Assembly (NCBI GenBank): GCA_965178125.1
Contig: OZ237760.1
Coordinates: 124,001-188,000, forward strand
Direction of reading: 5' to 3'
Length of the DNA stretch: 64,000 bases
Origin: Bilabrum cf. latius
Lineage: Eukaryota
A program made the translations under genes and the position numbers. The notes below the pieces were generated by a model. The model worked only from the letters and a program-made list of their open reading frames with translations, had not been told where the DNA came from and searched no databases. Of this stretch, positions 25,835 to 64,000 are shown one piece after another. Each line of letters begins with the position of its first letter. The stretch's first letter is position 1.

Positions 25835-26384
25835 ATCGGTTAGAAACAAGAGCGTAAAATACTGAAGTTTCCCTTACCGCTCGCGCATTTTCCCATTTGT
25901 GTGATTTTCGACATTTATACACGTTACATTCAGTCGTGGGGTAGGATCCGGAGTCTAAATGCGGTGTTGCGACCAACAGACTCCGAGAATCCAGCGACTT
26001 CGCTTCTAGGTTTATTCGACAGCCTTTCGCGACCACCGCGCGTTAGCGCGCCAGACCACAAGTTTAGCCAGTAATTATTGTCCCTGTCTACCAGTGTTGG
26101 CATTTGTCAAGCAGCGTGCCTGCAGCCAGCTGCCTCGCACTTGCTGATCACAACTGACGCGAACTGCGCTAGCTCGCCAGGGTCGACTGCAACCACCTGT
26201 AATCTTTGCCATAGACTCTGCTCAATATGAGTTTAGAATCGTATGATAGGCCTTATGACGGTAAGAAGATGCAGCTTTTTGGCGACATCCCGCGATACAC
26301 TTGCGCTGCGCAACGGCCGTACTCTACAAGAAGATTTACGCCTAGGTTTGTCACCCGATCGCAGAGCCAGGCACGCATAGTGAC
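25835..26384. promoter_or_regulatory. Probable bidirectional promoter region (GDH / giant cyclase)
   Basis: A ~550 bp lower-GC gap between divergent start codons. Confidence 0.4.
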
Positions 26385-41300: not shown

Positions 41301-44300
41301 GCGTGGGTGCGTGCGTTGTGCTGCAGGCTGCAACTGCACTTTTCCGACGCGGATACGGAGCAGGTCTTCTAGATGGTGTGGCTGCAAGATGCATACGCTG
41401 GGTTTCAGAGGTTTGTTGGACTTCTGGTGGTGCTGCTGCTCGCCGAACTCATCGCCGCGCTCCCGGCAGCACGCCCCACCGAGGGCGTGGTCCTCGTGTC
41501 GATAGCCGTCGCGGCCATTGGGATTGCCGTGCTGGCTCGGTCGACGTTCCACCAGGATATTCTGCCCGAGACGAACGACGAAGTGGATGTCAGCCGGCTG
41601 CTGAGAGACGCGAGGAGGAAGCGCAAGGTGCAAGAGGCCAAGATCAGGAGCTAGCAGCGGCTGGTGGTGCTGGCTGAAGGCAGGTCAGCGGCTAGTGCGC
41701 GAATCATGCACGTTCCTTAGGACCCGCATGGCGTGCTGGCCTCCCGGTCCAAGCGTGCGAGCGATGGGCTTGGTTCGGGCGCTGGCATGGCCATGCAGCG
41801 CGCCGCAGAGTCCAAGCGCGAGATGGAGCAGCAGAGGAGAGCGAGGTCCGTGCAGATCGACACAGAAGCCAGGGCTGGGGCAAGGGATCTGTCGGACGGT
41901 GGGAGCGGTAGAGTGCCGCGATCGGATAGCACCGGCACAGGCAACCAGAGTCACGGGCTCGATGGCAAGTTTTCCATGTCAGGGAGCCACCACACGCTGT
42001 CTGTGGACGGCAGGACGACAGAAGTGGGCATGTCTAGGGGTGGATCTGGCTTCGATAGCAGGTCGATGTCAGGTAAGCTGATGGGAGCGAGATTGCGCGC
42101 GGGTACTAGCAGCCGAATGACGGACGACTCTGACGACCGCATGCGCATTCGAGGGCACGTAAACTCTCGAGGGCACGACTCGAGGGGCTAGAGGACCAAC
42201 ACATTCGGGTCAGGATACCCAGCGTCGGCCATGCCCCATCTGACTGAGGACGTGCGCTACACAACCATCGACTCCAACTCGCACATGGGCTCCCTTGGCG
42301 CTGCGAGCAGAGAGGTGGGGTCGCACGACGACGGTAGCAAGGGCTCGACCGAGTCGGGTGGTGGCAAGCCAGGCAAAGTCAGTGCGCCCAAGCCCGGCCT
42401 GCAGTCCAGGCGGAATAGGCACCAGCCGATGCTGGACATCCCAGTTGAGGTGACACCGTTCTCACCAAGCGTGCTTACCGTGTCAGAGCCTCAAACAACG
42501 TCCTCGTCCAGCGGGATTCCCGCGTCGGCCCGATCCCAGTCCAGGTCAAGAGACAGGTCCGGGCCTTCGAGCCACTCTTCGCGCTCGTTCGCACGCGTTG
42601 AGGTGGAGCAGCAGCAGCGGAAAGACTCTCGCGACAGCCGGGCCAGCGGGGCCGGAGGCACGCAGCCGCCCGGGCTGATCGAGGAGACCTTTGTCACGCG
42701 AGCTTCCGGAGCAGCACCCGGCCGTGGGCCCGACGGCGACGCCACCGCGCTCGAAGTGTCGCGTGCCAGCAGAGGGAGCAGGGGCAGTCGAAGGCGAGGC
42801 CGCGGCAGGGAGCGCAGCGGACCAGCAGAGGTGGGGACTCCAACGGGAGGTGCGGTGGCACTGGATGCGGTGCCGCGCGCACGGCGGTCCAACACGTCGC
42901 ACTCGCGCAGGGACGTGCGGGACGTCACCGCCTCCCCGTCCGCGCAGAACCGCGGCAGGCGTAGATCGAGCATTCGCAGTATGGGAAGGAGGATATCAGG
43001 TTCCGCGGTACCGGCCACCACGACTGGCGCGGGATACAACCCCTTTTCAGCCAACGCTGCGATGGAACAGGTGATCGAGGGCCAGCGGCAGCGACAGCGC
43101 GGGGCCTCTGAGGACGCTAGACGACTCGGTATGCTGACCACCAGGGGCAGGCAGGGTAGCTCCAAGCGGAGCTTCTTCGGGTCACGCACGCCGAGGGGCA
43201 GCACGGGCGGCATGCACAAGGGTTTCGACTTTTCGATGGGCTCCCGAGGCATGCACAGGGGCCAATCGGTCGCCGTGGATCGCTCCCACGAAGGCATGGA
43301 CTCGTCCTCCAACAAGAGCAGAGAGAGCTCCCCCGCCAAGACTCCCATGAAGCGCAGCCAGACTGCCGCCATCAAGCCGCAGAGCACCGGCGGCCGGCGG
43401 CGGTTCTCGCTGCACGTGAGGGCCGTCGTAGCCGCGGCCCGAATAAGCAAGCGCAGCAAGGCCCGGGTGGTGGAGAAGGTCAGCTCCCTGGGTCGGGAGC
43501 TAGGGGCCACCTCGGTGGGGACAGAGGGCGACTCTTCGGGTCCTGGCACGCGCGGCGAAAGCTCGCTCATGGACGCATCGCGGGCCTCCCGCAGGTCGGG
43601 CTCGCGTCGCGAGGGAAGCAGCGGCGGACGGGGCAGGAAGCATCGCCCCAGCCTGCGACTGGACATCAAGGGCATGCAGGGCAAGTCTCCGTACAGAGGC
43701 CGGAGACGGTCGGTGGCTGGTGTTCCAGGGGCCGTGGCGAGCCTCACGAGTGCGTCTCAGGGAAGCGGTTCGTTGCCAAGCTCGTTCATCACCAACAGCA
43801 CTACGTCTGGCGGGGCCGGTGGGCAGGCGCAGAGCAACACCCCTTTCTCTTTACCAATGCGCAGCGTCTCTGGGCATCACTCCAGCGCGCACCTGGCCGG
43901 GAGCAGTCACGGGCGGCAGGGAACAGTGGCCAGCATGATGGTGTCCGAGGCGTCCTCGAGGAGCATGGTCACGCCTAAAGGGGGGCAAGCAGTGCCCGCA
44001 GTGCCTTCCCTTGCGTCGCCACATGCGGAAGAGGCTGCTTTCCACAGGAATCCCTACGAGAACGCCATGAGCAGCACGCCGCTGCCAAAGGCATCCATGG
44101 CCTCGATCGTCGAAGAGAGTGAGCCCAGCCCGCGGCACGCCCGCGGTAGGAGCCAGAGCAGGGACAGGGACCTGTCGGGGAGCCAAGAAGACCGCGCCTC
44201 GAAGGCTACTTCTGGTGCTAACGTACCCATGACTCTGTCATCTGCGGGACATAGCAGGGGCGGCAGTATTGCAGACGGCACCCGGATTCCCCTTGCTGGC

Positions 44301-47300
44301 CACGAGAGGGGTCCGAGCGGGTCGCAGCCGTCCATCGTGGCCAGCAAGCACGAGCACTGCGGCAAGGCAGGCGGCAAAAGAGGCAAGCCTATGGGCCGCC
44401 TCAGGATACAGACGGGCAGGCGAGGCCGCCGGCACTCGCTGGGAGTCTCTGCTCCACAGTTGGTGGACATCCGCCACGCACTTCATGACAACGGCGCTGT
44501 GCGGCGCGCGCCCAAGCTCAGCATCGATGTGTCTACAGTGGCCTCGTCCGGCAAGCCAACGGTGGGTGCCATGCGAGGCAGAGGGCCGTCCGCTGAAGAC
44601 GACAACAGCACGAATGTCGGCGACCCCAGCCTCGTGTCACCGGGCCTCGATATGCCGATGCTCACGTCCGGCCTGGATGCCTCGGCTGCGTCCGCCCTGC
44701 AGAGCGGGTCACCATCATCCCCCTTGGTGGGCCAAATGGAAGTCGCATCTTCGTCCCAAAACAGCAGCCGCGTGGGCCATAGCGGACCAGTGGCATCACC
44801 AGGAACGCCGGTCCCGCTGCAAGGACAAGGTCAAGGATCCGGGCTATTCTCATTGGAGAGCTAGAAGGCGTCCCCAGAACGGATCTCCGGCGATGATTTG
44901 AGGCGAGGTAGAAGCGGCGAGGCAAGCGGGGTGCGGAGAGGATAGGGAAGCCGCGACAAGCGTCGGCCTGGCGTCCCCTCCCCCCCGCCCCGCCAGAGCG
45001 CGGCCAAACCGAGGCGGCCTGCGGGTGCCGGGCCCTCCGATGCGTCTGCCTCCGATCCAGTCGGGGCGTCTGCAGGCGGCCTCACCGACGATGGTGGTGG
45101 CGTGCAGGTGTTGCTGCGGGGCGCCTCGATCGACGATTCAGATACGGCGTCAGCAAGCAGCAGTGTTGACCCAATGCAGCGCGAGTCTAAGCACGCCCAA
45201 ATCCACCCCGCTTCGGCCCCGCTCGGGAGAGAACCAGAGGCGGACAGCAGCAGCGGCAGCGCGGATAGCGATGGGGTGCACGGCGGTACGTGGGGCGAGT
45301 CGATGCGTCACGAGCAAGCAGCAGCTCGGCCTGGCTCGCTGGTCGGTGGCAGTGGCCTCCCGCCTGCGCACAGCCATCCGAATCGACCCGCTGGTCTACC
45401 CGCCCTCTAGACTGACTTGCCGGACCATCGGCATGCGGCTGCCGGGAGTTTAGCATCGCAGGAGATCGAGCCCCGCAGGAAGCACTCGCGCCCAACGGAT
45501 ACCTGGGAAGAAATGGGGAGCTTTTTCTGGTGGGTCCTCGAGTCTGCCGTGAACGCCACTCCGTTGTGTCTCCGCACCTTCTAGGCGGCATGGGCGGTTA
45601 CCATGCTGCTACTAGTGGCACACACGGTGCTCGCTGGAATTCTTATAGCGCGCCGGATGGCTGGAGGAGCGGGTCCGCTGACCGTGGGCATGGCTGAGCG
45701 AGAGGCCGGTTCCATCTACTACGACCAGGAAGCCACGCCCGTATAGCAGGAGATGTGCTACATCCCCGCAGTGCCCCTCTTGGTGATGCTGCCGGCCTTT
45801 TCGATCTTTAGCGTGGGACTAGTGCCGCAGCTGGTGCTTCAGCTTGGAGCAGTGGGCATGTACCTGGTGGTCATGGCTGCTTCGGGGTGGCTGGACCAGG
45901 ACGTCTGCCCAACCAAGGGGGTCGCATTCGCGGTTGCCACGCTCTTGCATCCCGCCCTGCTGGTGGTGGCGTTTGCTGCAGGTCGGGAGGCCACGGCTCG
46001 CAGGGCGCTGCTGCTGCAGCTGGCCAGTCGAAGAGCCCGCAAGCAGGCCGACGGCGTGCTAGCGAAGCTGCTTCCGAAGAGTGTGAACGACCGGCTTATC
46101 CGCGGGGAGGCCGTGCCGTTCGAGTACCACGACTACAGCATGGTCATTCTTTGGGCAGATCTGGTTGGTTTCACGGCGGTCAGCAGCACCATTTCCTCGG
46201 AGAGAGCCATGGTTCTGTTGAACGAGCTGTACAGCCGCTTCGACCAGTACATCGACGAGGAGCCCACCCTCTTCAAGCTGGACACGATCGGAGATGCCTA
46301 TGTGATTGTGTCCTGGGTGGACGACGAGTCCACTCCAGAGGGGGAGGGCCAGGGTCAGGCCAAGCATGGGAGCGCCGGCGGGCCGGGAAAGAGCAAGCGA
46401 CAGTCCGTTGCGACTCCATCCGGCACGGGTGCCACAGCGCGAAGCATGTCGCAGCATGGCAATGACGCGGACAACAGCCAGCAGCAGAGGGGTTTCGGCA
46501 ATGGCGTTGCTGCAGGCCAGGGATCAGCGCGTCACGCCTCGAACGCCACAACTGCAGAGGAGGAGCAGGAGAAAGAAGAGGCGGAGCGCGCCAAGGCAGA
46601 GGCCCGGAGGAAGCGCATGGAGGAGCAGGCCCCCGTGTCGCTGGAGAGGATCCTCAGGGTGGCCTGCCGCATGCAGGAAGCCGTCGAGTTCATCTCCGCA
46701 AAGTACGACAAGAAGATCGGCATTCGGATCGGGGTGCACGCCGGTCCTGTGGCCACTGCCATCATCGGTACCCTGCGCCCGCGCCTGATGGTGTTTGGCC
46801 CCACAGTGCTGGAGAGCGAGGCGATGGAGAGCGAAGGCAGAGAGGGGCGCATTCAGGTGTCCGAGGCGGCATACAAGCTCTATCTCAGGAGGGCATTCCG
46901 CTTCAGGCAGAGGAGCACGCTGCCTGAGCCGGTGGTGCCGTTCAGCACGGAACCGGCTCCCATGTTGAAGCGAAGGCTCAAGGAGATAGTGAGAGACCAA
47001 TCGTAGGGAGTGGTAGGCCAGGAAGGTGGCGATGGCAATCCGCCCACGCCTGCCAGCACTAGCAAGCGAGGGCAGCTCAAGTGGAGCACATGGCTGCCTG
47101 AGGCATCAACCGAGGAGGAGGAGGAAGATGAGGAGAATTTTGTCCTGAAGGGACCGCGGGGTGGGGTGCCTTTCAACTTGTTCGGAGGAACAGGAGAGTA
47201 TCCAAGCATGATGGGAAGCGGAAGCGTGCTGATGTCAACCATGCGGCCGCCACCCGAGGCCACCCCAGTCACTGGTACACCCGGCTCTATCCAGCCCGAG

Positions 47301-48287
47301 TACGGCGCCCCGCCTCGCTCCATGCAGGCAACGCAGGCCTTTGCCAGCATGCACGGGACCGGCATGGCGGGGGGCTACTTGGGCGTGGCCGCAGGGGCGA
47401 CGCTGCCACCGCGGCGCGACGGCCTCGGCGCCCTCAGGTCGTACTGGCTCGACAGCGCCAGCGTGAGGCGTTCGCTGCAGATGCAGCCCGCGACAAGGCA
47501 TCGAGGGCGGACCGGCAGGAGCCGCGGCAAGAGGTAGAGCAAGAGGGGCAGGCGATCAAGCGCCGCGGGGAGTCGTCTCGACGCTGAGATGGGCAGGGTG
47601 ATGCAGAACGGCGAGGGGGCCGGCAACAACGGCACGGGGCGGTCCAACCGCATGCCCCGCCCCTCGAGCGGGGGCGAAAGTTCGGCCTCAAAGAACACGT
47701 CTGTGACAGGAATGACGAGTGCAGTCGGCGGGGCGGAGTATCATGGCTCCCTGGACGAGAGCGGGGACGTGTTTGGCCTCGGTCTCGGCGGGGTGCATCC
47801 CAGCAGCAGCAGCAGGCGTGGGGCGGGCCCCTCTGGCGAGAGTGCAGGTGCAGGTGCAGGTGCAGGCAGGGACCAAGGCGGCCCCAATGTGCTCAGTTGG
47901 GCGGATAGCGGGTCTGCGAGTCGGTCCGGGAGCGTGGTGTCGCACACGATGCAACTGGAAACCACGATCGGGCAGGGGAGAGGGGGCAGCAGCGGCAGCA
48001 GCACAGGCATGGGAATTGCGGGGTCGGGTGGTTAGCCTCGACGGAGAGTGTCCGACAACGGTGCGGTGGGTGCGGGAATGACGTACGGACGCGCAGCGCT
48101 GGCGGAGGCCGAGGCGGCGGAGAGATCAGCGGGTGGCGGGCGGCCCAGAGTACTTTAGAGCAGCAGCGGGTCCGGTCGCAGCAACAACTCTCGAGGAGGC
48201 GGTGGATCCGCCAAAGAGCTGCTGCAGCCGTACGGCCCCAGCGCGTTCGGGATGAAGCGAGGCATTTCCGTGATGCACGAAATGTGA
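26385..48287 (+). CDS. Giant membrane-bound class III nucleotidyl cyclase (M1-C1-M2-C2 pseudo-heterodimer, probably guanylyl cyclase), ~7300 aa in one frame with ~45 TAGs; TGA stop
   Basis: A chain of + strand ORFs from 26385 to 48035 shares one frame and each ends in TAG; the gaps read by hand contain no TAA/TGA. TM block ~26660-27660. C1: YKIESVQNCY (~27957), IGMHSGPVTAGVVG...GDTVNVSSRM (~28830-28935), RGRIPVKGKGMMKTYF (~30170). C2: ILWADLVGFT (~46146), DTIGDAY (~46281), IRIGVHAGP (~46722). Confidence 0.85.
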
Positions 48288-48483
48288 GTGCCCCGATCCG
48301 TTGATCAATCCATGGAATGAATCATTCTAAACGAGTCGTGTTTGGTAATGCTGGCCAATCGAGCCACCCCCGTGGATCCGGTTCCGAATCACGCTTTCCA
48401 CGTGAACAAGCACATACGTAGAGAATCCCACGCAAACTATCCAGGCAAGGAATTTTTATTTAGTTTCTTACTCCAGAAGCGAC

Positions 48484-51400
48484 ATGCTTATATTTGCCTC
48501 AATGATGCTCTTTGGAGTTCATTGGCAAGTTGCAGCAACCTTTGTTAGCTTCTAGGAGGCCACCGAAAAGCAAGCACACGCAACGCTGTTTGCTGGGACA
48601 ACAGCTACTGTGGGAAACTTACCAAATTTATTTGTATCGTCCAGTCCAAGCCTACTGTTTGCCCCGGGCCCAAACACAGACCGGAATGTCGCGAGCATGG
48701 CTGGCTGCAAGACAGTCGGCGAGACCGTAGCTTGCAATGTGTCGCTTTCAGAGCAACCAGGGGACTATGTGTTTGGTGTTGCATCGGTGCAGCCGGGATC
48801 GACTGTCCTTGTTCGAGCTCTCAGCCGGCAGGCAGACTTGGACCACCCGGTGGGGATTTCAGATTCGTTCGCCCCTGGCATCCCAGGTAGCCCGCTCGAG
48901 AACGACACTAGGCAAAGCGATAAGTTGTATAAGGCCTACAATGTTGTAGATATGGGAAATTCGACGGTTTCCAGAACGAAATCCCTCGGCTTACAGCTGG
49001 AAGGCGCACCCCCCACCACATCAGCTGGAGGACCCCGTATTTCGGCAGGAATCTCGACAGCAAGTCCTTTTGCAGCTCTGTATGCTGCTCCTATAAACGT
49101 GAGCGTGGTACTAGCGCCATTGGACCCTAGCCTGCAGCAAGGCCCAGCAGTGGCATCGGTGGGTCTCTTGGCAGGCGGCTGCGATCTTGCGCCTGCAGCG
49201 CGGGAGTATTCTGGGTCTGAGGGGGTCCGTACCGTGAGTAATCAATCCTGCTCCCACGCACTGTGGTTAGAAGTGGACTGGAGCAACTAGAGCGCCACCG
49301 CCCGCTCCGCATCGGCGGCAGGTGACATTGACCTCTGGGGCCCAGTGAGCCTGCAGGGCCTCTGCCCTTCCTCTGGATAGCACGCTGGCCCAGATTCGTT
49401 CCGTCTGTAGGCAAGATTCACCTGGGAGGTGATGGTCCTTGCTATTGAATGTGCCGACTCCAGTGCCGGCAAGCCGATCAGGGTCGTGCTCCAGCACGGG
49501 GTGCAGGTGGGCCAGTTCGGGGACGGGCGCGGGGACGCTTCCCTCTTCCTCGGGGCCCGATGTCCCGAGCACTCGTCAGGGCTATCATCTGTGCATGGCA
49601 ACTCAAAGTGCGTAGCATACTTTAGGGACCTGGTGGTGGTGCAGGACCTGGCTCCCCGGCTCACGCCGGCGGTGATGGGCCCTGTCATGGAGGGCACCTT
49701 TATGCGCAGCCAGCCCCTCGGCCTGGAACACGAGGCCGATGCACGGCTCGGCATCCTGGACGTCACAAAAGGGCCGTTCTTCGTACAGGCCAACGATAGT
49801 ACTGTGTCAGGGGCAGAAGCCGCGTCGATTGCGAGCTGGAACGCGTTCGCCATGCAGCAAGCTGTCCACTATGCCGTGTCGAGAAACCTCCAGCTGTACC
49901 TGCCGTCGGGCCGATACCCCGTGGACAAGCCCATCATCGCGCAGTAGAAAGGGCCCCTCCCCGTCAAATATCCACCGTCGGTTGGATGGAATGACACGCT
50001 CATGGGCGGGGATTCGCGCGTCGGTGCGCTGGCAATGAGGGGACAGCTGAGGGCCTGGGGCCATCCAGGGGCGTGCTGCGAGGCAGCGTGCCGCCCATAG
50101 GATCGCATCATGGTGCATCGGACTGCTGTGCGAGGTATTCAGGGCTACTCGATCCCATTGTACTCTGAAACAGGTAGCAGCAGCCTCGTTGACGCGCGGT
50201 GCTACACCACGGATCGCTCTTCTGACGCGCCGAGGCAGGTCTCCATTGGATCGCCAACTGCCCGCGCCAGCATTGTCTTGCCAGCCAGAACGCCCGGCTT
50301 CACCGATCCTCACAACGTCACGGCCGTCCTTCAAATGGTCCGCTTCAATGCGCGCACCCCCCCTCACACGCTGCGCGAGGACAAGAGCAACGATCTCTTT
50401 AACACGGTGGTCGCCAGCCTCGACGTGCAGGTGCAAGAGGGCAACTTTGGAGCTGCGGGAATCCGCGCGCGAGGCGCGCAGGGCACTGACGTGGAGGACG
50501 TGATAATTAACCTGGGGCCAGATGGGGCAGTGGGACTGTCTGGCGTATCTGGATCGGGAGGCATGCACGCCGGCATCACGGTGATTGGCGGGCGATGGGC
50601 CGCAGATCTTCGGTACGCCCAGCCTGCCGGCACGTTTGCCATGTGGTCCATGCTGAACCAGTCCTGCGGCGCGTTCGTGTTTACGTCCCAGGGCGGGGGC
50701 ACGCTGGTGGGCGCCAACATAACAAGGACGAGCGCTTGGGAAAGGGCCGGCAGGCTTGCTGCCATGGTCCAGGGCTCATCGGGAGGAGCATGGCCAGGTG
50801 GTGCGGGCGCAGCGCGTGAGACTGTGCTGCAACAGGTGCTTGACATGCCGGTGATGGCGTCTGGCGGGGCGTAGGCTCTCCCGAACGTGACTGAAGAGCA
50901 CCCCTGCTACCTGCCTCCCAGCTGGTTCACCTCGGATCACGTCTCGGACAGGGACGGCTCCTTCGGAACTCTGTCCGTGGTAGACTCCGTGGTGCACGTC
51001 TATTCGGACGGAGATCTGGGAGGGAACGCTTCTTCTTCTTCTTCTTCTTCCAATTCCCCAGCCACTGTCATTCTCAAAGCGCAGGAACCGGCCATTTTCT
51101 AGCAGGTGCACGTGCTGGGTCTGCGTGAAGGTGACTTCCTCATCCAGCAGATCCCGTGGAATGCAACTGAGAACGGCGCAGCCCCCGTTGCAGCAGTGCA
51201 GGTGCCACAACCAGCTTTCCCATCACAGAGTCGGAAGCAGGCTGGGAGTGGCAACGCGGCAACGAGCTGGGTCATGGCAGATATTGCTCTCGTATCTCAC
51301 ACGGGGGCACCCCACTCGTACAAGAAGGACCAGCCGTTCACATTTGGCAAGCAGGCTCAGATTGGCGGGCGTGACGTCGTTTTGAACAACTATACCCGTG

Positions 51401-52884
51401 GGCTGCGCACGGGCCCGGGGGCGTCACCTCCACCGACGCTGCTGAGCAAGCACGGGTGGGGCTACACGCCCGCCTTCCCATCCTTCGAGACGCCAGGGGC
51501 ACTCAACGTACAGGGCCCGCCGTACAACGCATCTGGGTCGGGCATGGAAGACGCGTGGCCCGGCATACAGCGCGCCATCGAGGACGCGTGTCCCCCTGTC
51601 GGCTCCAAACAGGACCAGCGCAACGACGCCCCACCGAGTAGGGTTGTTGTGCTGCCCAGAGGCACGTACTAGGTGTCCCGCTCTGTCGAAGTGCCGCATG
51701 GCTGTTCCCTGGTCGGGCTAGACTTCGTGCGGACCTACGTGTTCTTCAATGAGAGCGCACCGGTGCCGCCCAGTGGGTTCGTGGTGGACATGATACCAGC
51801 AGCACAGACGAATAGCATCGGTGCAGCTGCTGGCCTCCTCCGAGGCCGTGGCGAGAAAGCCGGCAGCCCGGTCTAGGCCCCTGCCCAGGGTGGCACCTCG
51901 GGTCTGTGGCAGCCCTTGCGAGCGCTGTTCGGGATGCAGGTGATTGTGCCAGTCACCAAGGAGGACGTGCTGGGGGGCGTGCGATGGACCCTCAGCCCAT
52001 CTGCTGCCTCTGTTTCCGCCGAGCATTCGCTGTCGCTGTCGCAGCTGTCGCTTCCCTTGCCCCTGGGCCCCGAGGTGTTCCGACAAGTCCACTCCAAGTG
52101 GCTGCCCACCTGCACGCAACATGGTTCTGCTGCAGTGCAGTGCGGCGGCACTCCCACCACTGCCACAGTTCCCTTGTTTCTGGTTCGAGGCACAGGGAGT
52201 ACTAGTAGTCAGTCAGTTGCAAGCACCGCTTCAACCAACACCAGCAGCAGCAATGTTGGCTTTCCAGATGCTGCATGTGCCTCATCAGAACCAGACTGCC
52301 TGCACGTCCACACGCTCAACGTGGACATGCTTCCCAGCACGATGAATAGAGATTTCCGCATGCTCCTCGTGGCCAACCTTTCGTGCCCCAGCAGGTTCTA
52401 CCACCTCAACACAGAGCACGCCGAGAGCGACGCGAATGCAGAGGTGAGGGACAGCCGAAACGTGACGGTGTACTCGATCAAGAGCGAGGGAAGGTTCGCA
52501 GTGATGTGGCTCAGGCGCACGCAAGGGGTTGGCATCACCTCGTATGGAGGAAACGCGTGTCCATTCAACCTGGGCGGCGGCTACCCGAGCCCGCCAGTCG
52601 GGCAGCCTACGTACGCAAACTACACGCCGTCCATCTTTCGGCTAGAGCAGGCCCAGAGCACAAGGATCTCTGCCATGCAGCCGTGGGCCATGGATGGTAC
52701 CCTCTCAGCAGCAGCGGGTGGGTCCGGCTCCCTTTCGGGTGGGATGCACGGTGCGTATGGGATGGGACCGATCCCGTGCCCGCCGCCGACACAGTTCACG
52801 GCCCTGACGAGGGCAGACGGTGGGCCTGACGGTGTTTAGCAGCATCTGGACCCGCTGAAGCTGCCAGTGATGTTTGAATCGTGA
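48484..52884 (+). CDS. Secreted beta-helix carbohydrate-active protein (Pectate_lyase_3/GH55-like), ~1466 aa; 11 TAGs; TGA stop
   Basis: Signal-peptide-like MLIFASMMLFGVHWQVAA. Two beta-helix N-cap motifs: LDVTKGPF...AMQQAV...LYLPSGRY and LNVQGPPYNASGSGMEDAWPGIQRAI...VVLPRGTY. Many N-x-S/T sequons. Confidence 0.72.
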
Positions 52885-52992
52885 TGCAGCTTGCCACCAA
52901 TAAATGCCTCACACAGCCGTGACGGAAACGATCGGAGCCACTGGCTCCGCGAAGATCCTTCCTCAAAAGCAACAGCATATAGCAGTGCAACA

Positions 52993-55900
52993 ATGTCGAA
53001 ACAGCCAACGGTCACGATCAATGTTTAGATTGTTCCGACAAGTGATATTGTGTCGTGTGAAGTAGCCGAGTCGTCCAAAATGATAGAGGTGCTTGATTCG
53101 ATCCGCAAGTGAGTTTGGGATGGGATGGAAACGTACGTGCGCGCAAGCCTGACCATGCACGAGCTTGAACTGATGTTCCAGCATGTTTGTGTATGCCGAC
53201 ATCTTGCAGACAGTACAAAGAGCGCCCGGGTTTCAAGGCGCTAGGCCTGTCGCAGGCGGTGGCCGAATCTGTAAAAATTCGAGGACTCTTCACTTCACGG
53301 GGTCAAAGCGTTTCGGTCGAGAAGTCGATCAAGGAAACGTTTCCAGATGGAAAGTATGAACTGAAGTGCATCCTCAGTGGAATCGAGAGCGGTGAATCCG
53401 AGGGTGGGAACGCCGGGAAAGCTTCTGAAGGCTCGGGAACGGGGACCGGGGAAAAAGGTCTTGTTCGGCTCCCAGGTGCAATGCGCTTGGAAGAGCCCGT
53501 CGACATAAGCCCTGAAAGTCTGGAGGAAATTCCTGGCTTTGCGGCCGGGAGCCACACGGTAGCCTACATCATGCAGCCTTCAATGCGCGCCATTCGACTC
53601 GCTGTGAATCCATTTCGAACGACTTTGCGGGGTCTGAAGCGGGCGATTGCCTCTGTTGAGTCTATTGATGCTGCTGACTTGTCTGATCCGCTCCATGTCG
53701 TCAAGAGGGATGCACGCCGCTCGCAGTCGTTCGAAGGGCAGCTGCTGCCAGAGGGCTCGCACGCCGCGCCGCCCACTGCCTCGACGTCTAACGCTCCAGT
53801 GGTACCACTTGAAGAAGACGAAGAAGAAGAAGAAGAAGTCGTAGACGGAGAAGAAGAAGGGGATCCTACCAAAGCCCCAAAGAAGAAAACCGACGCGAAG
53901 GCCCCTTTGCCGGCGGACGAGGCTCTCGTCACGATCGAGCTGGCGGGGCGCTGGGCCCCCCTCCTCCCCTCTGGTGACGCGACCGGTGGCGGACGAGGTG
54001 GAGACGGGCCCAACCAGACGGGCGACTCAGACCCAGGCACGGCCGGTGGAGAGGAGGACCCGGGATCGGAAGGCGCCCAGGACGCCGGCTCGCGCCCCCA
54101 TCCACTGCACGCCGAAGACCTCACCCTGGACCGCTGGGGGTTCCTCGACCCGGGGGCACTGCTGGACCCGCCGGTTGCGACCTCTCAGCACAGGGCCACC
54201 ACGGTGGAAAGCGAAGGACCCGCCACGGGGGCGGGCGGGCCGGACCTGGAGTCGCTCGGCGACGGGAGCGCACGCTCCAGCACGCTGCACGTCACACTGT
54301 GCGCCCATTCCGGCGGCGTGTCCAGCCTGGCGGGAGGAGCCGACCACATGGATAACCTGAAGGTCAGCGCGGCGTGGCAGCCGGCCATCGGTGGGGCCCT
54401 CGTGGATCCGCCCAAGGGCTGGCCCAGGCTCTCCCGGATTCCCGCCCCTGTCTGCCTTGGAGACGCTGCTGCCGCTAGCGAGGCCAGTGGGGCGGCTGCC
54501 GCCGGCGAGCCCGCCATGTACCACGCCCGGCCGTTCCTTGAGCAGCCCGTGGAGTCTGCGTGCGATTTGATCAGGACGCAGTCGCAGAAAGGCCTCTCCG
54601 AGCTCCTGTCCTGCCTCTACGTCGCATCGCACTGCATCACGTCGACCACAACCAAGCGCAGCATGGTGGCGCAGGTCAGACGGCTCAGCGGCTCCCCCCA
54701 CGCAGCCCACGCGCTGCGGCTGCTTTTGGCAAAGCGAGCCATGGCTCCCGCGGATAAAGCGGCCCTGAGCACTGCACTGTACTGCATGCTCCGGTCTGCG
54801 CTGCCGCAGTCGATCAAGCCAGACGAGGTGTTCCAGAACGCCCGGCTGGCCATGGGCATGCTTCTGCTGCGAGGAGGAATGATGCGAGTCCCGGCCCCGT
54901 TCGAAGGACAGGCGGCCTGGCTGCAGATGGACCCTCTAGTCGTGAGCTACCTGCCCACCGACTGCACCGACGGAGCAGGGGCGTACAAGAACGTGAGTCT
55001 CCAGTGCGACCTGTCCGCTGCTCGCCTCAAGGACCCTGTGCTTGTGGGGCATGCCTTGCATGAGGACGAGGACGAAGAGGGGGCGGAAGGTCCAGTAGGG
55101 CTGGCAGCAGCAGCAGCAGCACCAGAATCACCGGCCACCCGCAGCGAAGGGGAACAGCCAGCCGGCTCCCTCTCACCAGAGGTGCTGGCCGTGCACAAGA
55201 ACAAGGTCTACTCGCGTAAGGCGGCCCTGGCACGCATCCCAAAGACTCTGGGCGGTACCCTGGAAGACGCCGACAAGGTCACTGCAGGCTGGCAGGGAGT
55301 CACTGCAGCGAACCTTCTGACAGACCACCGCAGGCTGGTGCTGCTGCGGGCCTGTCCGCACGGTACCGCTGCTCCAGTGTGGGCGCCCGTCCCGCTGGTC
55401 TCGGCCAGTCCGGAGATGGCAGCTAAGGTACAGCTCGGAGCAGATGACCGGACGGACGGCGTCGGTCTGCACGGTGATGCGACGGAGGCTACTCCTGCTC
55501 CTGGGGGCGAAGACCGACCATCTGACGCAGACGCAACCGCGGCCGGTGCCAGCGACGATCCCATGCCCAGCGAGCACAAGGTTGTGGGGGAGGCGACGAG
55601 GGACAGGTACCGGCCCTCCCTCGTGGGCACAGCCCGGGGACCTGCCCCGCTGTACCTTGCGATCTCCAGGGGTGGCTCCATCAAGAGGCTGGCTCAGCAG
55701 CTGGGTGATCTGCCTCGTAAGGCACCTGGCATGGCCATCGTGCATCCCAGCGCCCTGGGCTCGGTGCACGACGCGCAGCTGACTCTGGACGAGAGCGGGA
55801 GGGTGGTGGTGTTCACCCGACGGGCCAAATCCGCTACCGCTTCCACCATGCTGTACGATCCAGTGCTGGGGGATGAGCGAGCCGTGGACAAGGACACCGT

Positions 55901-58900
55901 AGCAGAAAAGCTGCAGGAGATGGGCATCGACGGCGCCAGCACGCTGGACAATCTTGACGTCCAGGACAGGGAGCCCGAGGAAGCCGTGGTCTTGTGCGTG
56001 GACACGAGCTAGTCCATGTGGAGGTACTGCTTTCCAGACCCGGGCGAGTTCGACCAGGACCGGTTCAGGCAGGACCTAAAGGCTGTGTACGTGCGGGCGC
56101 TGTCGAGACCGGATGCTACGGGCGCCGTGGCCCGCCAATTCGCGCTGGATCGAGTCGAGCACTATTACCCCGGGGCTGAGCTGGACGAGGGAGACACGCA
56201 GCGGCTTGTTGGCCGGCTGTCCATGACTGCCATCCTTCCGCTGCTTCGGCGCATCTACGCCGGGGGACTCTCGGGCCCGGCCATGCGGGAGACGTAGCGA
56301 CTTTTCGTGGTGGAAGAGCTCGCTGAAATACTGATGGACGCCAAGGAGTGTTCTGCGCAGGTCATCAGCCGCGCGAGGAGGAGGCTCCAGCTGCAGTGCG
56401 CTGCAAGCGCCGCGCAGCTGGTGGACGTGCTGGAGGCCGGCCCAAGCGAAGAGGACGACGAAGAGGAGGCGGGCGCTGCAGGTGCCGGCAGCGCGGCCGC
56501 AGGGGAGCCCGTGTCAGGCGTGCCGCCCGGGCCGCCTTCGGCTGCGAGCCGCGCAAGAGCCGACCCCAACGGGTGGATGCTCACAGATCCGGGAACCGTA
56601 GGAGAGGGAGCCCCCGAGGAACTGCGGTGCCCGCTGACGGGGAGGCTGTTCCGAGACCCCGTGCGGGTCCACTCTGGCCAGGTGTTTGAGCGACAGGCTC
56701 TCCGGAAGTTCCTTGCTCGCGACGACCGCTCTTTCTGCAGCGCTCCGCAGTGCCTCCTTGACATGGTAGAGAAGGGGTATGGCCTGACCGAAGAAGAGCT
56801 CAAGCTCTCTGCAGACGCCGAGAAGCTGCGAGCAGTGCGGAGATGGCTGCAGGAGCACCCCTCGGGCATCGTCAGTGAGAACGACGCGGAGAGGGCGACC
56901 GGGGCGGGTGGTGGCGACTCCATTTCGAGGGCTCCATTTAGGAGAACGCGAGGGCACTGGTTCGTCTCAAGGGTGCTTGAAGACCGCCGGAGCCAGATCG
57001 CCCATGTCAACACGGTTCCGGTGATGCTGCACAGCAATATGACTGAGCGAGCTGCCTGTCTATCCATCTGGCAGCAGAGGGGGTATTAGGAAGACTTTCG
57101 GCCAACCGTGTCCTCTCTGTGGCACAACAAGAGACGCACCGGCGATGGTTTTTCCACGGGATCTACCCTTGGAGGGGGTGATTCTTCATCGCTCCGCCAC
57201 ATGCTGCAGAGTATTGGGATCGCTTATACAACACCGCGCTGGCATCATGGCCCGCAGCGGTGGCCTAGCGCGTTCGAGGATGAGGAGCTGCGCCTGACAC
57301 CGCGATTCTTTGGATTACCCAACCCCATCACAAGTTAGGGCCTGTCGGAGGAGGAGATAGAGGAGAGGGCCGGGCAGGGGGTGGTTCTGCCACCAGCCAT
57401 CCTGGAGCCCCTGCCTCGGTTCGTGGACCAATCCAAGAACCCGGATCGCATGTCTCGCATCCTCACAGTCAAACAGCTCTTTGGGGCGTACCTCGACCGC
57501 ACGCGAGCCTTTGATCTGCCGCAGGAGATCGGCCTGGTGACGTTCAGCGACAGCCCCAAGATGCAGTGCGCCATCACGCCGGCCTTCGAGCGGTTCCGCA
57601 GCGAGCTGGAGGAGATGGAGCAGGACGGTGAGACAGCCATGGTGGACGCGATCGACCTCTCGCGAAAGACTTTGATGTCGTGGCGAGACCGCGTGCTTCG
57701 GAGAAGGCTGGACAAAGGCGTGGTGGGGTTGCGCCCGCCTCGACTGCGGATCGTGTGCCTTTCCGACGGCGTGGACACGTCCTCCTCGAGCGAGCCGCAA
57801 GAGGTGGCCACCGCTCTTCGGGCCGAAGGCATCGTGCTGGACGGCGTAGTGGTGGGTGAAAACACGAACGAAAACCTGCATCAGATGGCCAAGTTCACCG
57901 AGGGCTACTCCTTCCACCCCTCTACCATCTTCGATGCGCTGCAGCTGTGCGAGCTGGAGACTTTCCTCTCCTGCGGAAATCGGCCCAAGCCCCCGCCCCC
58001 GGACCGCGCCATGTCAGGCAGGCGCGATCTCACCCGCCTCGATGCCTACAACTCGGCGCAGTGTCCCCTGGATGTGTGCGCGGGAGGACGAGTGCCAGAG
58101 GCCAGAGCGGATCCCAGGGCCAGCGCGTAGGCTCATAGCCTGGAAGTGGCCATCAAGGCGCTGGAGCAGAAGGAGGAAGAGGCAAAGAGCAGCGGGGGCA
58201 AGCCCGATGGAGCTGCTGAGGATGCCTCGCCTGCCCAGGGGGAGACGGACCCGGCCGCTTCAACGCCCACGGCGGAGGAGGAGCTGGCAGCCATGGAACA
58301 AGCTGGTGCAGTGGGCAGCACAAGCTCGAGCCCCGCCAAACCCTCTGCCGCGGCCTCCAGCGAGGACGCCGCACCTGCTGCTCGGGCCCGTCGAGACCCA
58401 GCGAGCATCGCTGAGATTATCAAGCAGCTCAGGGTGCTGCACCGGTCCCCGCATCCCGCCTTCAAGGTGTATCCCAACGCGGACGACGTCACCTACTGGC
58501 GCGCCACGATGCGAGGACCAGACGACACGCCGTACCAGGGCGGAGTGTGGGTGCTGCAGGTGGACTTCCCGCCGGGGTACCCAGACGCCGCACCAAAGGT
58601 GCGGTTTCTGACGCCCATGCGACACATCAACGTGTCAATCTAGGGCAGGGTGTGCCACGCCATCCTGGACCGTGCGTGGTCTCCAGAGGTACAGATGCGC
58701 GACGTGTTTGACCAGATCTACGGTCTGATGATGACCCCCGAGCTTGACGATCCCTTGGACTCGAACCTAGCCAGCATGCTGCAGAACTCCGACGGGCGCG
58801 GCGTGTATGACGTCACCGTGCGGAACTTCGTGGAGGCGCATGCCATGCGGCGGACTGAGGAAGAGTGGGGAGAGAGACTGACGAGGGAGAGGCCAGCGAG

Positions 58901-59888
58901 CGGCGGGCGGGCGCACTGGGACGATGACGGCGATGAGGACGATGAGGACGATGGGGCGGCAGCTGGAGGGGGTGATGGCGATGGCGGTGGCGATGGGTTT
59001 GCCACCGTAGCCGTTCTGGCGGGCACTGGAGATCTGCTGGACCAGCGGGCGCAGCGCGTTGCACTCGACGACCCAGCTCTTGCGGACCGGGTGCAGGCAT
59101 CCACGCTTATGGGGGATGCCGGCCGAAGCGCCCGCCAGGCCCTTGTGGTTGCACATGCAGCTGATCGCATGCGGGATGAGAGCGCTGAAGTATTCCACAG
59201 CGACGAACCCAGCCCTGCCATGGCCGAGGCCATGAAGCTGACAGGGGAAGGTGAAGTGCTCGAGCGACGCGCCATGGCAGCATTCATGCGCGCGTCCGTC
59301 GAAATCAACATGCTGGCTGCATCTATGGGGGATAACCCCGCCATGCGCTCGCGGCTGCAGCGGCTCAAGGTGGAGATCGTGCTGAAACAGGCCATCCGGC
59401 ACCACCAGGAAGAATCAGAGGAAGCGGGAGAGGGAGAGGGCGATGGCAGCGATGGCAGTGACAACGATAGCCAAGCTAGCGAAGAGCCCGGTGCCAGTGG
59501 CGAGAACCAGGACGATGACCAGGACGAGTCTGCTGGTGGTGGTGATGGCAGCAGCGGAGCCGAGCGCCCGCCGGACTATCCAACCGCAGCCGAACTCGCA
59601 GGGACTGGGGATCTGCTTCACAGGCGGGTCGAGGCGATCACAGCAGTGGACCCTGAAGCCCGCCGCGTGCTTGCATTGCAGTAGATCCTCGGGTCACCGG
59701 AGAGCGTGGAGCTATTGATGCAGCGGATCGTGCTCGTCACTGCGATCAGGCAGATAGAGGAAGGCGATGGGGGAGCAAGTGGCGGCAGAGGAGGGAATGA
59801 TGGTGGCGGTGGCGGGGATACTGGTGGAGGCAACAACTCGGAGGGCAACGGCGACGATGACGGAGAGGTGCCCTGCAGGCCCTCGTAA
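52993..59888 (+). CDS. Multidomain ubiquitin-system protein: putative N-terminal Ubl, vWA, U-box and UBC (E2) domains, ~2264 aa. Exons 52993-53108 and 53210-59888; 8 TAGs; TAA stop.
   Basis: vWA MIDAS VVLCVDTS(Q)SM (~55986), with the rest of the vWA (IGLVTFS, GETAMVDAI, RIVCLSDGVDTSS) at ~57450-57950. U-box PEELRCPLTGRLFRDPV..SGQVFERQAL (~56610). UBC W...GPDDTPYQGG...FPPGYP...RHINVSI(Q)GRVCHAILDRAWSP (~58420-58850). The 101-bp GTGAGT...GCAG intron is in phase. Confidence 0.85.
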
Positions 59889-60098
59889 TGTGGATCCGGA
59901 TATGGCGTGGTTGACTGCAAGCGGCTGGGCGGGCTGCAGGACGCTTCCTGTTTAGTATCAGGCCCGCACGTCGGTATCCATTCTTGGGTACAGGAACCGC
60001 TTTAGCCACCCAAGTTGTTCCGGTTTACTGTTCTATATTTTGCGTGTGCGTTCGGTACGAAGCAAAACAAATAAAAACTCGAAAGGAACACATACGGG

Positions 60099-60779
60099 AT
60101 GGTGCTTACATGGACAGCACGTATAGTTGTCGTCGGACTTGCCGGGTTTTCGCCGATGGGAGTACTCCATCACTCCATCTTGCTGCTCGAGAACAGCGGT
60201 TCTGCTGATCGCATTGCGATCGAGTACCATGCCTAGACGTACGAGCCAGTGAAGAATTACTACGCCGAAGAGTTGAATAATGACGTTTTTGTCTACCACG
60301 TCAAGCCGGGTACCGATTTGAGGTAGGTGGCGGGCACTACCAAAGCGTACCCGGTGCCGATTGCTGCTGTGACTCGGGCCGCAGCTCATTTGTCGGCAAG
60401 TGGGACGTTCACCAGTGAATCGTACGATGTCAGTGGTATGCGCTCGTGGAAAGTTACCAATTGCCAGCGTTTTATTGTGACGCTCTGTCGCGCTGTTCCA
60501 GAACTAGCCGACTTACTTGCAGACTACAATGAAGGCTTCAAGACATACACAGGAGATTTTGGCGATCTCGAACAGATAAAGTAGTACCTACCTAAGCGGT
60601 GGCTCGACCTCATCAAGCGCATTGCTGCAACCCGTCCCAAGATCCTAGCCGAGGCGGAAATCGATGCCCTTGAAAGGGAGGGTGAATCTCTTGCAGAACA
60701 GGGACATGGAACATATCAAACCATGGAGATCTTGTACAATAGGCACAGCGGTCGCTTCAATATGCCTGGCAGCGCCTGA
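60099..60779 (+). CDS. Small protein with a permuted papain-fold (PPPDE/LRAT/NlpC-like) signature, ~226 aa; TAG at 60234, 60324, 60582; TGA stop
   Basis: Open frame from ATG 60099 to TGA 60777 when TAG is read through. An early HHSILL...AIEY is followed by SYDV...NCQRF. Confidence 0.55.
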
Positions 60780-60921
60780 ACGATGGAAATACAGGCGTAT
60801 TGGGCCGCAAGTTGGTATGCAAAATCAAGCTCGCCCAGCTTCCGATGCATCGAAGCTTGGTTTTGGTTCCACGACTTGTATATACCGATAAACTTACTTG
60901 CTAGCTCATTCGATTCTGCAA

Positions 60922-63900
60922 TCACAAGTGCTCGCTGCTGACGGCCGGCTGCCCCTCGCTACCTCCGGATGCTGCCCCCACGCCAGCCCTCCCTCTCGAC
61001 TCAACGGCAGCGTACAGCGCATCGCCCAGCGCGGCTCGAGCCGCTGCCCCTGTCTCGGGCCCGCTCAGCGCCCGCAGAACAGCCATCCTGGCCTCGGCCA
61101 GAGCCAGACTGGGCAGGGGCACCGGTGCAAGGAGGGCTTCCACGAGCCCTGGGGCTCCAGAGGCGATGGCCAGCTGGCCCCATCCGGTCGCTCTCGGGTC
61201 GGGTTCCCCAGGCGACGATACCGTCGATTGCTCGTTGCTGTCTGTTTGTGCCGGCTGCGCTGCAAGCGCCAGCAACAGGTCGTAGCCGGCCAGCTTGTGG
61301 GCCTCCTCTGGATGCGGCAGCAAGACGTTGTGCGCGAGCGCGGGCAGCGTGGACGTCTGGCCAGCCCTACGGGTCCCATGGTTATCGTGCACCCAGGCCG
61401 TGTACTCCTCCGCTAGCGTCTCAGCCAATGACCGAGGCGGTGCCCCCCTCGGAGCGGTGGATCGCCACTCTTTGCGAGCCTCAGGGGACAGGTCGTCCTC
61501 CCCTCGCTTCCGGCCCGAGGGGAGTCGGCCCCCGCGCCAGCCGCAGTGGATGCCCCAGAACGCACCAGCGAGCATCATGCGGCCGACCAGCTGCGCGCTC
61601 GGCATAATGACCGCGCCGGATGCTCCGGTAGACCTCGCCGAGAGCACGATGATGGCATCGCATGCCGCGCTCTCCTCCGAGCTGCAGGCGAACCCCTGCA
61701 GCTCGAGGAGACTTGCCACCGCCTAGCTAGACGGAGCCAGAGGTGATGATGATGATTGCGCTGCCCCCGCGCTTGTTCTATCCCCTTCTCCCCCCTCCAC
61801 TGCTTCGTCACCGTCACCGTCACCGTCACCGTCACCGTCACCGTCACCGTCACCGTCACCATCATCCATCGCCTTGCTCTCGGTGGCACCTGCCCCAGTG
61901 GCGGCTGCGCGGCCCGAGCTGGCAGCGACCGTCGCACCAGTGGCACGGGCAGCCTCTTCATCGCGGGAGCTGGACACCAGCGCATCCCTCTCTGCCAGCA
62001 GCGCCGTCTGCCTCGTGCTGAGCCCCGCCTCTGCGTCCCCCTTCCTGACACCAGTCAGCGCCACGGACGATGGCGCGGGTGCCGCATCGGTGTCCTGCGG
62101 CGCGTCGGACGTCCCATGGTCCAGCGCCCCCGCACCGGCCTGCAGCACCGCAGCTAGTTGCATCCCAGCCGATTTGGCCAGGACAAGGCCGCGCGATTGT
62201 GCCGCTGCTGCGCCCGCCACATCGCCCCCCTCGCGCAGCAGCTTGGAGCTGGCGGCCATTGCCAGCACAGCATCGGCGCCGGCACGCGCGGGCGGTTCCG
62301 GTACCGCCGATGCTCTTAGCACCCGCGCCAGGCAGCGCGCTGCCGTCTGCCTGAGGTCCGGCTCGGTTCCCGTGGCTGCCTCTGCCACCGCCCCGAGGAG
62401 CCTGGGGAACTTGCGGAGGGCCACTTGGAGGCACCCCGGGTCCTGAGCCATCAGGGAGCAGGCGGCGCCCACCAGCTGTGAGGTGTCCTCTGATGACATC
62501 GAGGCGGATGAGGCGGCGAGGGAGGCCGTGGCTCGAAGCAGAACGGGGACGGCCACTGCTCGCCTGGATAGGGTCACCATATGGGCGGCCTGCGCTATAT
62601 GCGAGTCGCCGCCTGCTGGCGACACTGACTCGCTGCCGGAGGCCCTGACGAGTGCTTCCTCCCCTGCTAGGTGCAGCAGCGACTGCACAACCGTGCAGTG
62701 CACCTTAGAAAGCACCGCAGCGCACTGCACCCCGAGGAACCCGTCGGGATCGCCGAGCCCACCCGCCAGGCCGGGCGTGTCACCGTCTAACTGCCTCATC
62801 TGCTCAACAGATACATGCAGCGCGCCCCGCACGGCGGTTCTCTGCCCTGCACCCAGCTGCCGCAGCATGGACCACTCGGGCAGTGGACCCTCTCCCTCCC
62901 GATTAGCGGGCACAGTGCCGGTCACCGGCCCGAGCGCCATCCCGGCGGCACCCGCCACAGCCCTCAGGCACTTGAGTCCACCCTACCCCTACCCCCCCTC
63001 TTCTCCTTCTCCTTCTACCTTTCCAGTGCTCACTTCGCTCCCCTCCTCCGAGAACAGCACCCGCGCCCCCTCCACAGAGGAAGCGAGAGCGGGCAGGCAG
63101 CCCAGCGCGTTCATTGCCAGGAGCGGGTCACCAAGGGAGCTGTGGCAGAGGGTGAGGAGGGCCCCCGTGGCACCGCTGGCCCGCGCCAGGGAACAAGCCA
63201 GGGGGCACCCTGCCAGGAGGGTTGCGACCAAGTGCGCCCCTCGGACCTGCAGCGAGGACGGGTCATCACCGTCCCCGTCCTCCATCGGAGTGCTGCTGCC
63301 TTGCGCATCATTGCCGGCTGCGCCAGAGCCTGTGCCCGATGGGCCCGAGCCCGGTCCAAATGAGCCGCGAGTCGATATCCCGCAGGCTTGCATGATGGCA
63401 GCGAGAAGGCCACATGCTGCCTTGCTCGCCTTGCTGCCCGCTCGAGCACTTGCTCCGTGCACCAGGAGAGCGAGCGAGAGCGATTCGGCCAAGGCAGCCT
63501 CTACCAGATCCTACCCCGCGAGCGACCGACATAAAGAAGACTGCAGAACGGCAAAGACTGCCTGGAATTCCGATGCATGGGGCTTTGCAGGACCTGCTGC
63601 CAAATTTCCGGCGGGCGCGCTCGTGCTGTCGCTTCCACCCCACAGCGCAGCTGCAGCCGCAGCCGACGCGACGAGCCCAAACCCGGACTCTTTGGAACGC
63701 TGCGCCACGCAGACCTGACGGGCACGCCGAATGATCACGGCGGCTTGGGGCTTGCCGGAATTCGAATCGGCTGCACCGGCACACGAAGCAGCGTAGGCCT
63801 CTCGGTCGTCGCGCCTGCTGGGAGCAAGACACGGCAGGGGACATGTCGGCGGCGCAAGCAAGCGGATCAGTGCCCTCATTGAGGCCATTCTGACCTCGCG

Positions 63901-64000
63901 TTCTATGCTCGCGACACCCGATCTGACTGTGCTCGTTGCGAGCTCGGCTGCGTGGCTTGCGCTTGGATCGACTGCTCCTGCCGCTGAGGCAGCGCTATCG
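60922..64000 (-). CDS. Large Ala/Leu-rich helical (ARM/HEAT-like) hypothetical protein, 5'-partial; TAG at 63511, 62989, 62983, 61723; TGA stop
   Basis: ORFs 63511-63888, 62989-63492, 61723-62958 and 60922-61719 share one frame, are joined by TAG and stay open to the window edge. Amphipathic helical segments are present but no family is recognised. Confidence 0.7.
61807..61860. repeat. (GTCACC)9 hexanucleotide microsatellite encoding a (Gly-Asp)n tract on the minus strand
   Basis: Perfect tandem repeat read directly; in frame within the 60922-64000 CDS. Confidence 0.95.

Follow-up and report, generated by a model that had tools for sequence, protein, structure and literature searches.

The stretch of DNA analysed here (the window, 64 kb in length) has a GC content of 58–71%, with 64% GC also given as its composition. 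Under the standard stops (table 11) its longest open reading frame (ORF) is 1107 aa, and when TAG is treated as a sense codon, 13 long ORFs separated by short spacers open on both strands. The ORFs contain eukaryotic Pfam families (Mpp10, MMS19, DGAT2, the proteasomal Rpn3, IFT57, MIP18, GDH, inositol/sugar transporter and UBC). Also encoded are an adenylate/guanylate cyclase with two catalytic domains, a protein with a pectate-lyase fold and one that combines U-box, VWA and UBC domains. The DNA is nuclear and comes from a flagellated eukaryote that is GC-rich, gene-dense and intron-poor. No tRNA genes were found in the 64 kb with ARAGORN, no Rfam family had a match there, and eRF1 is not among the encoded proteins. 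Introns are few: one is visible in RNA-like contigs (53109–53209), and two were read from the sequence of the GDH gene, in which the upstream exons lie at approximately 25668–25833 and 25282–25439 (region 25207–25830, minus strand), with the donors GA/GTAAGT and GAG/GTGAGC. The N-terminus of the GDH protein is rich in Arg and Ala, similar to a mitochondrial presequence.

Four public sequencing runs (X1, X5, X6 and X7), for which the kind of nucleic acid, DNA or RNA, is not on record, were compared with positions 44001–64000 of the window. X1 behaves as DNA, as its contigs run across introns and spacers. X5, X6 and X7, which come from two studies, were treated as RNA on the strength of a GT..AG joint that is absent from X1 and of contigs that are the size of single genes; the label that the comparison tool gave to X5, 'RNA? 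(probably DNA)', was weighed against this reading. The features in and upstream of the part of the window covered by these runs that are needed for the argument are as follows.

26265..48287, plus strand: giant ORF for an adenylate/guanylate cyclase; 7340 codons, among them 46 TAG, no TAA and no internal TGA; ends at TGA 48285; RNA-like contig end at 48370
48406..52884, plus strand: pectate-lyase-fold gene with 11 TAG; ends at TGA 52882; covered by a single RNA-like contig (X5) spanning 48427–52899
52993..53108, plus strand: exon 1 of gene 11; RNA-like contigs begin at 52976 in X5 and 52973 in X7; reading frame worked out from the sequence
53109..53209, plus strand: intron of gene 11, 101 nt, GTGAGT...CAG; joint 53108->53210 in X5, X6 and X7 (one contig each) and in none of the X1 contigs
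53210..59885, plus strand: principal coding exon of gene 11; seven TAGs in frame; Pfam UQ_con (UBC/E2; 1.3e-31), U-box and VWA
59886..59888, plus strand: TAA stop of gene 11 (U-box/VWA/UBC); ends the ORF 53169–59888; no other gene end in the window is TAA
59889..60057, plus strand: putative 3′ UTR of gene 11; X5 rec10 ends at 60057 and X7 rec28 at 60021, and DNA contig X1 rec4 continues
60099..60779, plus strand: gene 12, 226 aa, with 3 in-frame TAG; ends at TGA; in the same frame as gene 11, with TAA 59886 and TAA 60072 between them
60922..63999, minus strand: gene 13, with its 5′ end beyond the window and 4 TAG; ends at TGA 60922

The giant cyclase ORF is intron-less and encodes a membrane adenylate/guanylate cyclase, in which several thousand low-complexity residues rich in Ser, Gly and Arg lie between the two catalytic domains. 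Its 3′ part is covered by a 17-kb RNA-like contig. There is one cyclase domain in each half of the ORF, and the second is located downstream of most of the 46 TAGs. Conserved domains downstream of TAGs are also found in gene 11, in which the UBC domain follows five TAGs and itself contains a sixth. Gene 12 has no Pfam match, and the sole match for it in the PDB has an E value of 0.54.

Codon usage was counted in 14 ORFs (the 13 with ends and the 5′-open gene), from the first ATG to the stop and, in the case of GDH, from codon 40, which gave 19,119 codons. In frame, they contain 100 TAG, no TAA and no TGA. In the two shifted frames (+1 and +2, respectively), the counts are 103 and 115 for TAG, 33 and 57 for TAA, and 270 and 307 for TGA. 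TAG is as frequent in frame as off frame, i.e. it is not avoided, and TAA and TGA are wholly excluded from the coding frame. The same ORFs use CAA 133 times and CAG 620 times. If TAA and TAG were used in the CAA:CAG ratio, 21.5 in-frame TAA codons would be expected, and the probability of observing none is ∼5e-10; across four pairs of A/G-ending codons (CAA/CAG, GAA/GAG, AAA/AAG and TTA/TTG) the expectation ranges from 17.6 to 30.7. The observation in a preliminary description of this DNA that no reconstructed coding sequence contains an in-frame TAA, despite the use of CAA for glutamine, was thus borne out. Chance comes nowhere near explaining the lack of TAA in frame, and that TAA is not a sense codon is statistically solid within the window. 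The zero count is not circular in any important way, because a TAA inside a real gene would appear as two adjacent ORFs in the same frame, and the window contains just one such pair, gene 11 and gene 12 (60099–60779). The sample comprises ∼19,000 codons and 13 gene ends, and rare context-dependent use of TAA as sense, or of TAG as a stop, may occur.

All 13 gene ends proposed earlier were found at their positions. Twelve are TGA (3201, 8213, 12155, 14524, 16090, 17094, 23471, 23773, 48285, 52882, 60777 and 60922) and one is TAA; none of the 13 ORFs ends at TAG, but the ORFs were defined with TAG as sense. With 12 of the 13 ends and no in-frame occurrence, UGA is a terminator and not a sense codon. 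The dominance of TGA, which the preliminary description had put forward as a feature of this code, is real as a count, but requires no explanation beyond base composition. Off frame, TAA makes up 90 of the 667 TAA and TGA triplets (13.5%), which corresponds to ∼1.8 TAA ends in 13. The 12:1 ratio of TGA to TAA is not beyond chance, because off-frame composition predicts this small number of TAA ends; at 64% GC, TGA is favoured over TAA by composition.

The one TAA gene end, that of gene 11, is the place where termination at this codon can be followed directly. Its letters show no differences in the DNA contig X1 rec4 or in the RNA-like contigs X5 rec10 and X7 rec28. The X5 contig of gene 11 comprises 52976–53108 joined to 53210–60057, and the X7 contig spans 58922–60021. 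Both cross CTCGTAATGTGG, which contains the GTAATG site, with neither a joint nor differing letters, and end about 135–171 nt further on; the X6 contig ends before the TAA, at 59805. Gene 12 is represented by RNA-like contigs of its own (60073–60908 in X5, 60078–60836 in X7 and 60101–60885 in X6), and in X5 the depths of the gene 11 and gene 12 contigs differ (88.7 versus 41.1). The DNA contig of X1 (59679–61265) is continuous across the gap between the gene 11 and gene 12 contigs. Coincident ends of RNA contigs are rated by the tool as a weak hint, and a poly(A) site is not proved by contigs. The 183 nt that follow TAA 59886 have a codon-usage log-odds score of −0.035 and a GC content of 53%, with scores of 0.31 before the TAA and 0.29 in the next gene, and judged by this composition the stretch between the TAA and gene 12 looks non-coding.

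It had been cautioned in the preliminary description that the TAA, in its GTAATG context, could be part of a splice donor. In that case the coding sequence of gene 11 would continue in a downstream exon and the window would provide no evidence for TAA as a stop. The hazard is a real one in this genome, as the first donor of the GDH gene (exon 1, ...GA/GTAAGT) places a TAA in frame. A related metagenome contig of 2.7 kb, L001, presents a similar case: its sole TAA-ended ORF, that of a transporter, stops at TAA 1226–1228 in the donor-like context CCGTAAGTG, inside GTAAGT. For gene 11, however, no joint at 59885 was reported in any of the four runs, and X5 rec10 and X7 rec28 continue unspliced for 171 and 135 nt, respectively, even though X5 and X7 do show the 53108->53210 splice. 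In addition, GTAATG lacks the G at position +5 of the donor that is present in all three introns seen (GTGAGT, GTAAGT and GTGAGC). With unspliced contigs across the site and gene 12 in separate contigs, the caution is answered, and a splice donor at 59885 is very unlikely.

Termination of gene 11 at TAA 59886 is reasonably supported, for one gene and from RNA-like contigs. The statement in the preliminary description that TAA remains a stop is upheld by the absence of this codon in frame and by the end of gene 11, where RNA-like contigs run unspliced through GTAATG. The accompanying reservation that there is a single TAA end also stands (n = 1 in the window), so that support for TAA as a terminator is moderate. 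A metagenome scan for relatives of the C-terminus of gene 11 yielded none among 470 pattern matches.

Several further observations concern the same region. Gene 11 has in-frame AUGs at 52993 and 53080, and the frame from 52993 crosses a TAG at 53026; the protein may start 29 codons earlier, at AUG 52993, in which case one of its first 12 codons would be a TAG. The TAA of the L001 transporter lies within CCGTAAGTGTAG, a near-perfect donor (GTAAGT), and the next in-frame TGA is 14 codons downstream, so this site is either a stop or part of an intron. The X1 assembly contains a bubble at 59707–61235, in which the segment is present in a 1587-nt contig (depth 22.8) and skipped by a 58-nt contig (depth 12) that links 59706 to 61236. 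The depth of the flanks is ∼37–39, neither junction has a repeat, and the RNA-like runs contain the long form only. The bubble looks like a heterozygous or polymorphic indel of 1,529 bp. The short form, which is the minor one in X1, would lack gene 12 entirely, the final 60 codons of gene 11 together with its TAA, and the 3′ part of gene 13. In this form the frame of gene 11 would extend for 403 codons, antisense to gene 13, until it meets a TGA.

An alternative in which UAA and UAG both encode glutamine (UAR = Gln, table 6) would require that TAA is too rare in a GC-rich genome to be met in frame and that TAA 59886 is read through. Joint reassignment of the two codons is the usual case (PMC5304391 and PMC11687900), and TAA is indeed less frequent in the window DNA than either TAG or TGA. 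Rarity of this degree does not account for the counts given above, with 0 in-frame TAA against 100 in-frame TAG, an expectation of 17.6–30.7 and off-frame occurrences of 33 and 57. If TAA were sense, the mRNA of gene 11 would also be without a stop before the end of the RNA-like contigs, as the next in-frame TAA, at 60072, lies beyond it, and the sequence that would be translated scores as non-coding. Reading of both codons as glutamine is thus extremely improbable, and UAA as a stop is preferred.

Another class of codes to be weighed is the context-dependent one, of the type found in Condylostoma, karyorelictids and Blastocrithidia, in which TAG, and perhaps TAA, would be sense inside genes and a stop near the 3′ ends of mRNAs. 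The absence of TAG ends could then be artefactual, as TAG was counted as sense when the ORFs were defined. Such codes exist (PMC4967479; 10.1101/2022.04.12.488043), several genes in the window have a TAG within 15–70 codons of their TGA or TAA, and ORF calling is blind to the codon used. However, RNA-like contigs end soon after a TGA or TAA in every gene: the distance is 4–169 nt for the five gene ends that are covered. Dedicated stops would also be needless in an ambiguous code. In the window, the coding frame is strictly free of both TGA and TAA. The context-dependent code is rated as very improbable. Editing is not the cause of the in-frame TAGs either, because the letters of TAG and TAA stand unchanged in the RNA-like contigs. 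A TAG that is sense throughout the genes, with TGA and TAA as the stops, remains the preferred reading.

The amino acid inserted at TAG was examined in alignments with relatives of the sugar transporter and of the MIP18-like protein. Two transporter fragments, P0005 and P0017, were obtained from a full HMMER search. P0017 is encoded by L001, which is syntenic with the window, with a transporter gene followed by a convergent MIP18 gene. Four TAGs of the window could be aligned with close relatives.

12907..12909, plus strand: TAG in the sugar transporter, ITGG-x-L site; Q in P0005 (89% identical) and in 111 of 149 homologs
14224..14226, plus strand: TAG in the sugar transporter, PWTI-x-SEMF site; CAG in the L001 ortholog; among 145 homologs, N in 76 and Q in 15
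16555..16557, minus strand: TAG in the MIP18/CIA2-like gene, PLTLE-x-LNVV; CAA in the L001 ortholog
16528..16530, minus strand: second TAG in the MIP18-like gene, NVRL-x; CAG in the L001 ortholog

All four face CAG, CAA or Q in relatives that are 72–89% identical. P0005 has Q at the window TAG in ITGG-x-LIAT, and its predicted ORF ends exactly before the next window TAG; P0017 (76% identical) has Q at the window TAG in PWTI-x-SEMF. The residue counts are taken from the best 150 homologs of the transporter, of which 149 are aligned at the first site and 145 at the second. The reciprocal comparison is in agreement: of the five TAGs in the transporter ORF of L001, one lies within a conserved block, and it faces CAG in the window. 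Judged from these alignments, UAG is glutamine in the window. As L001 also contains in-frame TAG, the code is common to a small clade. When the window is translated with table 15, all 13 genes are opened and Q is obtained where the relatives have Q.

Assignment of TAG to another amino acid, such as Glu, Leu or Tyr, for which other UAG reassignments offer precedents, could draw on columns in distant homologs that do not contain Q (IFT57 of Chlamydomonas and human Rpn3) and on transporter site 594, where N is the commonest residue. At the TAG columns, Chlamydomonas IFT57 has E/A, F and V, and human Rpn3 has T and K; these are variable columns, and on alignment grounds the residues of the distant homologs speak neither for nor against Gln. 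The homologs of the transporter, IFT57 and Rpn3 in the PDB, once aligned, proved too distant to name the residue at TAG, and word searches for homologs of IFT57 and Rpn3 returned only 2 and 5 matches, respectively, swamped by low-complexity candidates and useless for decoding TAG. Against these columns stand the agreement of the close relatives, including the reverse case, and the Q of most homologs at the best-conserved site, so a residue other than glutamine is the least probable of the alternatives considered.

The comparison with L001 also bears on gene structure in this part of the window. The MIP18-like ORF (16090–16773, minus strand) apparently crosses a short intron after ...NVRL-TAG, and L001 has separate ORF pieces there; as read from the sequence, the true protein is probably shorter than this ORF. 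The spacer between the transporter and MIP18 genes measures 1.56 kb in the window, in contrast to 254 bp in the syntenic L001, and contains a small ORF (15069–15344, plus strand) of 91 codons, which has a coding-like codon score of 0.33 and ends at TGA.

Together, these results support, at a probability of roughly 0.85, a single-codon change in which UAG encodes glutamine and UGA and UAA still terminate, which matches NCBI table 15. The molecular requirements for such a code are described in a study of UAG-only codes (PMC5304391). Only the anticodon CUA reads UAG and yet ignores UAA, and tRNA-Gln(CUG) is converted to CUA by one mutation. Recognition of UAG by eRF1 must be lost through changes in the N-domain (the GTS, NIKS and YxCxxxF motifs and position 69), as illustrated by the T32G change in the Iotanema GTS motif and, in the rhizarian exLh, by an alanine in place of Leu69. 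By analogy, the simplest mechanism for the window organism would be the same as that inferred for the known UAG-only codes in that study. A tRNA-Gln with the CUA anticodon, one base away from the ordinary CUG, would read UAG and would be unable to pair with UAA, and eRF1, the single eukaryotic release factor, would have lost recognition of UAG and kept that of UAA and UGA.

Decoupling of UAG from UAA is thus of an already known kind, and the code of the window is that of table 15, which assigns TAG to Q and keeps TAA and TGA as stops, but is descriptive only and silent on lineage and mechanism. Among the UAG-only codes in print with UAA as a stop, those of the rhizarian exLh (UAG = Leu) and the fornicate Iotanema spirale (UAG = Gln) are described by Panek et al. 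2017 (PMC5304391), and those of Protocruzia tuzeti and two phyllopharyngean ciliate lineages (UAG = Gln) and of another phyllopharyngean (UAG = Leu) by McGowan et al. 2024 (PMC11687900). Scotinosphaera (UAG = Ser) is a further case. Iotanema spirale resembles the window most directly, with UAG alone reassigned to Gln, UAA as a stop and a proposed combination of tRNA-Gln(CUA) and altered eRF1. However, UAA is the dominant stop in that species according to the same source, whereas TGA is dominant in the window (12 of 13), and the lineages appear to be unrelated, as the GDH of the window has a mitochondrial-type N-terminus and groups near Cafeteria. The phyllopharyngeans and Protocruzia tuzeti, in which UAG-only reassignment to Gln with UAA as a stop is independent, are ciliates, whereas the window is gene-dense with 58–71% GC and conventional spliceosomal introns, and nothing in it is ciliate-like. 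Rhizaria sp. exLh and Scotinosphaera share the decoupling and the UAA stop, and differ from the window in the amino acid.

The codes of table 6 (many ciliates, Hexamita, Streblomastix, ulvophytes and Amoeboaphelidium, the last of which is listed as UAR = Gln in PMC5304391 and PMC11687900) likewise convert a stop to Gln, but UAA is also Gln there, in contrast to 0 in-frame TAA in the 19,119 codons of the window. In Condylostoma, Parduczia and Blastocrithidia, with ambiguous stops or no dedicated stop, several stop codons including UGA are sense in frame, whereas neither TGA nor TAA is found in frame in the window. What sets the present case apart is the genome, which is very GC-rich and relies mainly on TGA for termination and not on UAA, and probably also the lineage.

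The lineage was approached through GDH, the best named match of which is that of Cafeteria roenbergensis (68% identity), compared with 56–61% for fungi, dictyostelids and an ichthyosporean; the Protein Atlas provided no usable taxonomy for GDH. In a quick maximum-likelihood (ML) tree of this one gene, which provides only a lead, the query and its environmental relatives are sister to the Cafeteria clade, with an SH-aLRT value of 89, which is not strong, and both lie inside a starred clade that also contains a bicosoecid and MMETSP sequences. This placement hints that the window organism is a Cafeteria-like stramenopile, and after it Amoeboaphelidium, with its UAR = Gln code, was rejected as a possible source. 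No report of nuclear UAG reassignment in a stramenopile or a bicosoecid was found in a search of the literature outside subscription journals and very recent work. It can be proposed tentatively, at slightly less than even odds, that the combination of UAG = Gln and UAA = stop has an independent and so far unreported origin in GC-rich, Cafeteria-like (bicosoecid-related) heterotrophic stramenopiles, common to the window organism and at least one environmental relative, L001 (∼72–76% identical). If so, no nuclear reassignment of a stop codon would have been known in stramenopiles before, and the code would have arisen in a strongly GC-biased genome with TGA, not TAA, as the working stop.

The window thus represents a probable new lineage for a rare, already described code variant. 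UAA and UAG are nearly always reassigned jointly, and each lineage in which they are split is a natural experiment that shows how eRF1 separates UAA from UAG and how a tRNA with the CUA anticodon takes over. With the present case, the independent examples would come to include a compact and very GC-rich genome, in which codon capture cannot be argued from AT pressure and almost all genes terminate at TGA. The annotation of these organisms is affected in practice as well. Gene callers that use the standard code cut genes at every TAG, and the fragments of relatives in databases end or begin at TAG sites. Because fragments predicted with the standard code break at these sites, the lineage must be annotated with table 15.
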